Shown one piece after another: positions 56,405 to 59,084 of a stretch of 64,000 bases of DNA. Numbering within the stretch: the first letter of the stretch is position 1; each line of letters begins with the position of its first letter. The notes beneath the pieces are model-generated. The model was not told the origin of the DNA, searched no databases, and saw nothing but the letters and a program-made list of their open reading frames with translations. Source of the stretch: Nostoc sp. DedSLP01. Its GTDB lineage: Bacteria; Cyanobacteriota; Cyanobacteriia; Cyanobacteriales; Nostocaceae. The stretch is taken from NCBI GenBank assembly GCA_034530875.2, contig JAVRCJ020000003.1, positions 128,001-192,000 on the forward strand, read 5' to 3'. The translations under genes and the position numbers were made by a program.

Positions 56405-56899
56405 ATGATGCAGATTCGCCAAGCTACCACAACTGACGTGCCCGCAGTTTTACCAATGGTTGCTAAAATCTGTGCTTTGCACGAGTCTTGGGATTCTGCC
56501 AAATATGGTTTTCTAGCCAATCCAGAACAGCGCTATGAAAATTGGTTAACCCGGTTGGCAAATAGTGATGGCTTCGCCAACGCTTCCAGCGTACAAAGTG
56601 TATTTTTGGTAGCCGAAAACCAAGGCCAACTTGTTGGTTTTTTAGTGGCAACAATTGAAAAAGAAATCCCAATTTATCGTTTAAAAGAATTTGCTTTTAT
56701 CCACGACCTTTGGGTTGAACCAGAGTATCGACGAAACGGAATTGCCCGACAAATGGTAATACAAGCTGTAGAACGCTTTGAACAAATGGGCATCAAGCAA
56801 ATTCGGCTAGATACAGCAAATGCAAACGAACCTGCGCGGCGGTTGTTTGCATCTTGCGGTTTTCGGATTAGTACTATTGAAATGTTGAGAGAGTTATAA
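56405..56899 (+). CDS. GNAT N-acetyltransferase
   Basis: LWVEPEYRRNGIA, N..ARRLF..CGF. Confidence 0.92.
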   Translation: MMQIRQATTTDVPAVLPMVAKICALHESWDSAKYGFLANPEQRYENWLTRLANSDGFANASSVQSVFLVAENQGQLVGFLVATIEKEIPIYRLKEFAFIHDLWVEPEYRRNGIARQMVIQAVERFEQMGIKQIRLDTANANEPARRLFASCGFRISTIEMLREL

Positions 56900-56982
56900 A
56901 TTAGGAGTTAGGAATTAAGAGTTAGAAGTGAGGAATTAAAAACTTTTAACTCATAACTCATAACTCCTAACTTTTTTAACTC

Positions 56983-57459
56983 CTAACTAGCTAACAGAGT
57001 CTTTTCTAGAGAAGTCCAACGGAAACTGCGATCGCCACCCCTCTCGATGACTACCCTCACCCGTGGTTCTAGCTTAGGCAAGTTAGCTAAATATTCAATT
57101 TCCTGATCGGAAAGAATATTTCCTTCAATAATCCACAACACCAGCCCTTTTGACTTTGGTGGTAGCTGTTCTAAATGACTGCCCAGAAGTGGTGGCGCGT
57201 AGTATACATAACCTACCGCTGCACCGCTACCAGTACTTTTTTTGCCCAGATGAGGAGGTCTAACTCCGTGAACTCTTGTGAGATACGCAGCTACGTCCCC
57301 CAGTCCTTTAGCAGTAATGTGCAGCATAGTATAGCCAGCTGCACGAAGTCGCCGCTGATACCGACCTTCATAACCTCCTTCCAGAGGTACATATACTCCA
57401 AGAGCGCCAAATTTTTCCAGATCCCGGATTAAAGCGTTGCCAGTGGTAATTAGTGCCAT
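56983..57459 (-). CDS. ndhN: NAD(P)H-quinone oxidoreductase subunit N
   Basis: PLEGGYEGRYQRRLRAAGY, HGVRPPHLGK, ERGGDR. Confidence 0.96.
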   Translation of the reverse strand: MALITTGNALIRDLEKFGALGVYVPLEGGYEGRYQRRLRAAGYTMLHITAKGLGDVAAYLTRVHGVRPPHLGKKSTGSGAAVGYVYYAPPLLGSHLEQLPPKSKGLVLWIIEGNILSDQEIEYLANLPKLEPRVRVVIERGGDRSFRWTSLEKTLLAS

Positions 57460-57674
57460 AGATTTTCGTCTTATCCCACCTTAGTTATTTCTATTATTTA
57501 CCGTGAACCGTATAGATAGAGCATTTTTTTCAGAATTCGGCATTGGGTATAGGAATGGGGAAAGGGAAAGATTAAATTTATTCCTTTTCCCTTTTCCCTT
57601 TAACCTTTTCCCCTGCTCCCTGCTCCTCCTGCCTCCCCTGCCCAATACCCCATCCCCACTTCAAAAAAAATTAC

Positions 57675-57703
57675 TAGACAATCATAAATAAATGATTTAT
57701 ATT
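57675..57703 (+). promoter_or_regulatory. Sigma70-type promoter upstream of the rplC operon
   Basis: TAGACA-N17-TATATT. Confidence 0.6.
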
Positions 57704-57709
57704 ATTAGA

Positions 57710-58448
57710 TTGTGACCAAACGCGCAAATTAGCTTGCCTTAGTAATGTCATTCTGAAAAGAGTGTTAGCATCAAAGGCTGATTAGTCAATTTAAAGATGA
57801 TAATCTAACGAAAGATTGTTCATAGACTGGTAAACTAAGAAAGCTTTTAGGTTAACATTGGAGCTTGTGAAGGAAGAAGCAAAGCCAATCCTCAGCTTCA
57901 GACTAAATTGACTCCTGCGCCTCTCATAAAAAGGCAAAACCTTAAACAGTTAGTTTAAGTTGTTTAGGAAAGTAAAAACTGAGCGGCAATGCTGGTTTAT
58001 TAGCATTACCTCAGTCTCAGTTAACGGATACTGGGTGGTAAAAGCCGCTTAAGTCCAACTGCAACAAGGCAGTCGCCAACCTCAGGGAAGCCGTCCTTTG
58101 GGCAGATACAAATCGAAAACCCAGCGGCAACGCTGCCTGCAAAAAGTGCCACAGCAATTGCTTGGACAAAAGCATTGCTGCACACAGCTTAAAGCTGTAG
58201 CGCCTTGCATTGATTCCAGAAGTTACTCCTTCCCAAGGGGAAGAGACTTGTGGCTGTTCTGGCGGTCTAGTCAGTGAAACTAAACAGATTCGCTAAGCAG
58301 TACGGACACGGTTTGTTGTGTCCCAAAGTATTTGGAAGGGTTGAAACCGTTCCAAATTTCCCAGGCTGTAGCCTAAACTGACGCGTACAAAGCGTGTCCT
58401 CTAGAGTCGGATTCCAAGGTCAGCAAGTAGAAAGGAGAACCAGTAACT
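57710..58448 (+). ncRNA. Long structured 5' leader / candidate ncRNA preceding rplC
   Basis: No long ORF; ten or more stem-loops with + strand G-U pairs and a GCAA tetraloop; ends at SD AGAAAGGAG. Confidence 0.6.
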
Positions 58449-59084
58449 GTGTCTGTAGGTATTCTCGGCACCAAGCTGGGCATGACCCAAATATTTGACG
58501 AGGCAGGAGTAGCCATTCCTGTCACCGTTATCCAAGCAGGGCCATGCACTGTTACACAAGTTAAAACAAAACAAACCGATGGTTACGCCGCCATTCAAGT
58601 TGGTTATGGCGAAGTTAAACCAAAGGCACTAAACAAACCATTGTTGGGCCACTTGGCTAAATCATCTGCTCCAGCAGTGCGTCATTTAAATGAGTATCAC
58701 ACTGATGGCTCTAACGATTATGCTTTAGGTCAACAGATTAAAGCAGATATTTTTAGTGCAGGTCAAATAGTAGATGTAATCGGTACAAGTATCGGTCGCG
58801 GCTTTGCAGGTAACCAAAAGCGTAACAACTTTGGTCGGGGGCCGATGTCACACGGTTCTAAAAACCATAGAGCGCCTGGTTCCATTGGTGCTGGTACTAC
58901 GCCCGGTCGTGTCTATCCAGGTAAGCGAATGGCAGGACGCTTAGGCGGTAGCCGCGTCACAATTCGCAAGCTGACTGTAGTGCAAGTAGACGCAGAACGC
59001 AACTTATTGCTAATTAAAGGAGCCATTCCTGGTAAACCAGGCGCTTTAGTAAATGTTGTACCTGCCAAGCGAGTTGGTAAGTAG
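58449..59084 (+). CDS. rplC: 50S ribosomal protein L3
   Basis: [27 protein letters not shown]. Confidence 0.99.

Follow-up and report, generated by a model that had tools for sequence, protein, structure and literature searches.

Feedback repression has been described for primary rRNA-binding proteins, which act on their own operons by way of rRNA-like sites (PMC10931766, PMC3616713). For uS8, the site in helix 21 of the 16S rRNA is defined by the base triples A595-(A596-U644) and (G597-C643)-U641 together with the invariant A642, on which the S-T-S stretch of S8 stacks (PMC4176348). As far as the available text of a 2024 review goes, the regulation of spc genes outside the gamma-proteobacteria is given there as unknown (PMC10931766).

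In cyanobacteria, an 'rplCD operon leader' has been predicted computationally for marine strains (cluster 5 of Axmann 2005, PMC1242208), and another computational screen has reported a structure upstream of K02906 with high covariance, present in most cyanobacteria (Geissler 2026, PMC12873609). Judged by position, covariance and presence, the latter is probably the same element as the core hairpin described below; according to the available text, that screen took at most 500 nt, which is shorter than the present leader. The accessible parts of both studies name no ligand or mechanism for the rplC leader, 'cyano' is absent from the available text of Eckert and Weinberg 2020, and the leader is not treated in the accessible parts of PMC2662882, PMC4734099, PMC8136920, PMC5829567 and bioRxiv 2023.01.13.523895. 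In the literature covered, which consists mostly of non-subscription sources seen in part, we have not seen S8 assigned to any cyanobacterial leader.

Here we have analysed the region before rplC in a 64,000-nt stretch of DNA from Nostoc sp. DedSLP01 (the window), where an earlier, sequence-only reading had proposed a densely structured leader RNA of ~740 nt. It is the leader of a fused S10-spc operon, and on balance we think it probable that free uS8 binds its core and lowers expression after transcription has begun, because primary rRNA-binding proteins follow the rule given above.

Locus and transcription of the rplC leader

The spacer of 989 nt separates the divergent neighbour ndhN (56983..57459, - strand; an ORF matching Pfam NdhN with E 2e-75) from rplC, the first gene of the operon, which encodes uL3 and has a GTG start (58449..59084, + strand; TIGR03625, E 5e-84). 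Based on folding, conservation, alignment and the start site in Nostoc PCC 7120, the 5' untranslated leader of the operon extends on the + strand over 57710..58448, counted from promoter P1, and contains the conserved Shine-Dalgarno sequence AAGGAG of rplC at 58432..58437 (+). On the 3' side of rplC, the ribosomal-protein cluster extends beyond the end of the window to rpsH (G000:C3:193196; Pfam Ribosomal_S8, E 1e-51). With the PCC 7120 unit described below as a guide, we infer that rpsH, being downstream on the same strand, is cotranscribed with rplC in the host strain.

The leader is kept in 36/36 genomes of the genus and in 142/150 genomes of the host family, and its core stem covaries strongly. 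Host-family leaders align colinearly from promoter to start codon with many indels, and the promoter stretch is common to named records mostly of Nostoc and other heterocyst-forming genera. Outside the host family, similarity of the leader at the DNA level is lost and a profile recovers two blocks, namely the promoter and one hairpin. Across the class, leader length ranges from 66 to about 800 nt.

As the leader is single-copy in the host genome and the multi-copy matches belong to a short-repeat block at ~57535-57660, we have rejected its interpretation as a mobile or repeated element. This block, which is multi-copy in Nostoc genomes, is one of two short tandem-repeat blocks, the other being at 56890-56990. 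Because of these blocks, spurious matches to Rfam miRNA models arose, which fall on repeats outside the leader only. Within 57710-58448, the Rfam 15 covariance models gave no match at E up to 10. A conserved peptide in the leader has also been rejected: the longest ATG frame has 4-58 aa over 63 leaders and the alignment is indel-rich, a judgement reached with no dedicated coding test. Overall, the leader is real, transcribed and structured. Its proposed novelty holds as to Rfam, but a structured cyanobacterial rplC leader was already predicted (Axmann 2005, Geissler 2026), so its existence was partly known before.

The promoter TAGACA-N17-TATATT of the sequence-only reading is indeed present at 57675..57703 on the + strand (P1; -35 TAGACA, 17 nt, -10 TATATT) with 10/12 consensus matches and is conserved across the family alignment, although matches of this type are not above chance by themselves (2 found vs 2.5 expected). 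A P1-like promoter occurs in 83/111 genomes of other families. Around the presumed start (+1 near 57710) there is a conserved block at 57706..57720 (+), with a mean top-residue frequency of 0.93 in 63 leaders. In PCC 7120, the 11,871-nt unit TU02826 has its start 688 nt 5' of rplC, carries a gene list from rplC through rpsH to adk1, and goes down by log2 2.2 after 9 h without nitrogen; its start site is tagged nTSS (non-coding start) in the published table (PMC10287535). This start is distal to rplC, in line with the long leader of the sequence-only reading. Since the table places this start 200 nt from the ndhN start codon and the median for P1 is 207 nt over 77 loci, the PCC 7120 start site should correspond to P1. 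No entry for the rplC leader was found in the start-site tables of Nodularia and Fischerella/Chlorogloeopsis. Contigs from four RNA-library runs overlap parts of the leader and one of them spans leader and rplC; these contigs carry no strand, start or level, the joining one begins upstream of P1, and they are not counted as evidence.

A second promoter, P2, is likely. Its extended -10 element TGnTAnnnT at 57828..57836 (+) is conserved in diverse leaders: the full element is found in 59/63 and TAnnnT in 62/63, with the n of TGn being variable. Judging from these letters, P2 would likely start near 57843, that is, 130 nt inside the P1 leader, and would give a leader of ~605 nt.

The core hairpin and its distribution

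At 58026..58056 on the + strand, 16S identity, covariation and distribution together point to a mimic of the uS8 site capped by a covarying stem-loop. Actually, all 13/13 letters of the two strands agree with E. coli 16S rRNA, 58027-58033 being equal to 639-645 (GAUACUG) and 58050-58055 to 594-599 (UAAGUC), and the strand order is swapped relative to the 16S rRNA, as in the E. coli spc operator. The letters of the triple A595-(A596-U644) are present at 58051/58052/58032, and those of G597-C643 with 641 and A642 at 58053/58031/58029/58030. Position 595 is A in 213 of the 220 sites surveyed below, while 596 and 644 belong to the search pattern itself; position 641 is U in 193/220 and A in 27/220. 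The same position is U in E. coli 16S rRNA and A in the spc operator and in cyanobacterial 16S rRNA, including the host's own. In the 16S genes of five phylum members, AAGUC and GAAACU stand at the helix-21 place, and the host S8 retains the S-T-S stretch.

We have aligned 70 of 79 candidate cores, leaving out nine with longer stems (12 loci had been dropped earlier as duplicates or not matching). In this alignment 95.1% of the cells pair, and there are 110 two-sided changes vs 31 in shuffles and 13-38 in slid controls. Two-sided change is seen in 6/11 core pairs and the helix is kept on both sides of the loop, e.g., the pair 638:600 is GC in 52 and AU in 14 cores; the distal-side helix has only 3 pairs in the host family. 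Between the two strands there may be as few as about 8 or more than 70 nt, a variation that suits an RNA stem rather than a DNA operator. With the covariance model of the core (R1), the 8.6-Mb genome has a single strong match (E 1.2e-8), the next one having E 0.019. The model does not pick up forms with long stems, the E. coli operator among them, and finds 11/16 held-out photosynthetic leaders at E<0.001. Other conserved 6-mer pairs, too, co-occur in rRNA by chance, and when 46 conserved 6-mers were inspected by eye, no further pair was seen that mirrors a paired site of rRNA. No S8-type site was found in the 7 kb around rplE in the host. Overall, it is very probable that uS8 binds the core hairpin, a site predicted from its letters and pairing.

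In several families (L135, L161, L169, L176, L177 and others), the hairpin extends by eye into a helix of 4-5 pairs, then an internal loop rich in A, in many cases GAAA, and finally a GCCU/AGGC helix, and these flanks look like the next section of 16S helix 21. Elsewhere in the genome, 56 nt of intergenic DNA copy the GTPase-associated centre of 23S rRNA (L319:1501-1556, i.e., G000:C12:12303-12358, +; also G013:C1:5422203-5422258). This copy lies outside rRNA operons, matches LSU model positions 1093-1148 with E 1e-12 and keeps its pairs through changes. It has a divergent gene for an Na+/H+ exchanger on one side and, on the other, a 277-aa gene that belongs to no Pfam family, after which comes a ThiF gene. 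We take this 23S segment to be the L11/L10 site, and the copy is possibly a second rRNA-mimic RNA.

For the distribution, the DNA before rplC was taken from 252 genomes, a subset of larger searches chosen for genus and family spread, and two strands plus the closing pair were used as the signature. Before rplC, the signature is present in 220/232 photosynthetic genomes: 91/91 in the host family, 106/108 in other photosynthetic families, 23/30 in family f41 and 0/3 in family f64, against 1/20 in other classes, kin being not independent in these counts. The reverse strand of the first three groups gave 4/229 and shuffles gave 69/4,980. Because the pattern was derived from the counted sequences, the invariance inside it is partly circular. 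Under a stricter 3-of-3 stem rule, the site is found in 89/91 host-family, 91/111 other photosynthetic and 7/30 f41 genomes, and another strict stem rule gave 83/91 and 52/73.

The f41 genomes are small and presumably those of picocyanobacteria; by eye, four of the seven misses in this family show both strands when one position is relaxed. In a 16S tree of six sequences, the f64 family, which we take to be a Gloeobacter-type lineage, falls outside three other photosynthetic families (97/96), and its leaders are 66-72 nt long; an L3 tree (80 residues) gave no resolution. In the other classes sampled, which we take as non-photosynthetic, rpsJ is directly 5' of rplC, and no S8-type site was seen in the rpsJ-rplC gaps, of which 19 of 20 were delimited.

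Several further features were seen in these leaders. Some other-class genomes (L180-L198) have structured rpsJ-rplC gaps of 120-270 nt with within-family motifs, which are candidate separate leaders. Leaders of f41 (L321-L350) carry a long conserved GC-rich block in the first 40 nt, with which a GCUGGCG block ~20 nt before the ATG can pair in several genomes. In other families (L096-L113, L147-L179), a UGU(A/U/C)GU-type motif is enriched about 20-30 nt before the start codon, just 5' of the Shine-Dalgarno sequence, and no consistent pairing partner was found for it. Leaders of 870-1,290 nt with inserts of up to ~600 nt occur at L057, L077, L069 and L238; the promoter block is present in 4/4 of them and the core in the 3/3 checked (L057, L069, L077).

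Folding and family-level helices

Folding of the whole region on the + strand gives z -3.46, with 0/20 shuffles as good. Since the - strand gives z -3.83, whole-region energy picks no strand, and the + strand preference of the sequence-only reading fails at this level; it is seen in 5/9 windows of 140 nt, in which the + strand has the lower z, most clearly in 58270-58409 (-5.2 vs -2.5). The part 57710-57900 is weakly structured (z -1.6 to -0.3).

We have counted compensatory events per helix on a tree of 99 leaders, with control columns matched for rate and consensus base and a threshold of 0.05/23; these covariation tests are home-made, and the data used in them had also served to pick the helices. 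Six of the 23 helices pass this threshold, i.e., 57869/57886, 57977/58022, 58033/58050, 58153/58179, 58228/58244 and 58303/58400. Seven further helices, including the long-range 57784-93/57904-13, have p values of 0.008-0.025. In the proposed-structure test, 3/128 consensus pairs reach E<0.05. All-against-all covariation (home-made, with a tree-based null) on a sequence-only alignment of low power gave no pair at E<1, the best E being 1.9 with 63 sequences and 12 with 99.

Along the + strand, the family-level structure begins with the hairpins 57869-72/57883-86 and 57939-47/57953-61 (57869..57961; p 0.0015 and 0.012). The helix 57977-83/58016-22 follows around the hairpin 57986-58009 (57977..58022; p 0.0002), with 8.7 compensatory events vs 1.4 expected and two pairs passing the proposed-structure test. 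The strand 58016-21 has two possible partners, 57978-57983 upstream and 58030-58035 in the S8 site (5' strand), which makes it a candidate local switch breaking the site. On the 3' side of the core there is an optional insert (58065..58138) with a GCAA-loop hairpin at 58122-58135, whose long form is present in 21/63 diverse leaders. The most conserved family-level domain, 58146..58208, consists of the bulged hairpin 58146-58183 and the helix 58189-92/58205-08 and has a mean top-residue frequency of 0.87; its helix 58153-58/58174-79 shows compensatory events at p 0.0002. The 3' domain, 58216..58400, contains the hairpin 58228-44 (p 0.0002), the helices 58254-65/58290-300 (p 0.014 to 0.08) and 58303-09/58394-400 (p 0.0007), and, enclosed by the latter helix, the hairpin 58331-56 (p 0.013 to 0.025).

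The stems listed in the sequence-only reading do fold in the host: its three two-arm helices pair perfectly (10/10, 7/7, 6/6), and so do all eight hairpins fold. On the other hand, their conservation differs. The long-range helix 57784-93/57904-13 pairs in only 54% of family cells, and the stems 58304-58323 and 58380-58398 are mutually exclusive with the helix 58303-09/58394-400, whose conservation is better. For 58184-98 and 58304-23, the 99-leader tree lends no compensatory-event support to the idea of conserved stems, and the GCAA hairpin is confined to the optional insert. That is, the hairpins around the core are lineage-specific and the leader is modular. The earlier picture of a large cis-regulatory RNA is retained in so far as the leader is long, conserved and structured, has a distal start and belongs to no Rfam family, but it is not a single 740-nt RNA: besides the promoter, only the ~30-nt hairpin is common to cyanobacterial families, and the likely P2 lies 130 nt inside.

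Possible feedback by uS8 and comparison with known systems

Negative feedback by uS8 is likely. Surplus uS8 would occupy the helix-21-like hairpin in the leader, and the bound protein would block translation initiation at rplC, a block that would be passed on via translational coupling and faster mRNA decay. The surrounding hairpins may form a lineage-specific scaffold drawing the site near the start region, and the two tandem promoters would set the transcription input. Since the usual parts of attenuation are missing and no intrinsic terminator follows the site, our first choice is translational repression with coupled decay. Terminator-like hairpins between site and start are seen in only 3/220 leaders, and in 0/91 of the host family, and intrinsic attenuation was rejected on this ground.

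The output step is the least certain part of this model. Site and start codon are 389 nt apart in the host and 42-692 nt apart elsewhere, with medians of 362 nt in the host family, 227 nt in other photosynthetic families and 153 nt in f41. Complementarity between the leader and the ribosome-binding region is not above that of shuffles. Occlusion of the Shine-Dalgarno sequence by 57912-16 or 57826-31, as predicted by the consensus fold, was rejected with zero compensatory events and no excess over shuffles; pairing of 57826-31 with the ribosome-binding site is also less likely because this stretch is better read as promoter. When the site was forced or broken in 26 of 26 host-family and 18 of 36 other leaders, the mean predicted accessibility change was 0.01-0.02, and the bound state was lower in 3 and higher in 8, so an equilibrium switch from the site to the ribosome-binding site was rejected, no coupling being predicted in the 44 leaders. 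Translational output at rplC would require a relay of a tertiary or kinetic kind.

This distance from the start codon, and the lack of predicted coupling to the ribosome-binding site, would also suit a reading in which uS8 binds and the output is only at the RNA level, by pausing or premature termination with the help of a factor and no U-run, or by nuclease cleavage of the leader. In some lineages, moreover, the site begins ~20 nt after the -10 box and forms first during transcription. We consider such an output unlikely, given the rarity of terminator-like hairpins after the site, the absence of Rho from cyanobacteria (PMC10287535), and the PCC 7120 rows TU02824-TU02829, among which there is no separate unit ending in the leader. 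Another possibility concerns the ligand, which might be a different protein (L4, L3 or non-ribosomal), unless uS8 binds without feedback, e.g., to hold new S8 for assembly. L4 does regulate the rplC-containing operon in E. coli (PMC3616713), and the domain 58146-58208 is highly conserved and unexplained; however, the helix-21 copy is the only phylum-wide RNA element found, the 46 conserved 6-mers gave by eye no second paired rRNA site, and no Rfam leader matches. This possibility therefore seems improbable, and L4 and L3, the ligands named in the sequence-only reading, are probably wrong because the conserved core copies the uS8 site.

A stable, processed large ncRNA or RNA-protein particle acting in trans would agree with the 600-800 nt colinear multi-helix structure kept across the host family and with the nTSS label in PCC 7120. 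Nevertheless, the element is always directly 5' of rplC without its own terminator, lacks a defined length (66-800 nt in the class) and accommodates large insertions and deletions. Nothing in Rfam matches it, and no entry was found in the sRNA tables of PMC4734099 as far as available; we hold this reading to be very unlikely. With the same position, the same lack of a terminator after it and lengths of 66 to about 800 nt, the cotranscribed independent ncRNA suggested earlier is likewise not supported.

Returning to uS8 feedback with translational output, a bolder form of it can be drawn, which we regard as speculative and rather doubtful: cyanobacteria may have invented once, after the split of the earliest-branching family, a uS8 sensor governing the whole 20-gene S10-spc operon over a distance of hundreds of bases, and the 600-nt fold of the heterocyst-formers may relay binding to the rplC start by tertiary packing, with no part played by a base-pair switch or a terminator. 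The E. coli operator does not work in this mode. If the feedback is true, this would be an S8 operator placed independently, spanning most of the phylum and acting far from the start codon. With uS8 and a 31-nt site named, the ligand question for a leader predicted since 2005 becomes a simple binding or reporter test, and users of the strong rplC promoter region can see which bases could carry feedback. What is new here is that the core found across the phylum has the identity of the uS8 site, that the promoters are likely a tandem pair and that the leader is modular.

Compared with the E. coli spc operator (PDB 1S03; PMC4176348, PMC3616713, PMC10931766), the core has the same internal-loop letters, the swapped strand order and an S8-encoding transcript, and the spc triple A+80-(A+81-U+11) is consistent with this swapped order (PMC4176348). 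However, the spc operator overlaps the rplE start and has a long coding stem, whereas the cyanobacterial site has a short cap, heads a fused 20-gene S10-spc unit and is in the 5' leader before rplC, usually 100-400 nt from the start. In recognition the core resembles the spc operator, but its position sets it apart. With 16S helix 21 it shares the 13/13 letters and a flanking helix kept by covariation, while its loop is closed on the opposite side and its distal helix is short in the host family. The E. coli S10-operon leader, the target of L4, is likewise a structured leader of an operon with rplC and rplD; it precedes rpsJ and has a terminator, whereas the cyanobacterial leader has ndhN upstream, no terminator, and a copy of the 16S site.
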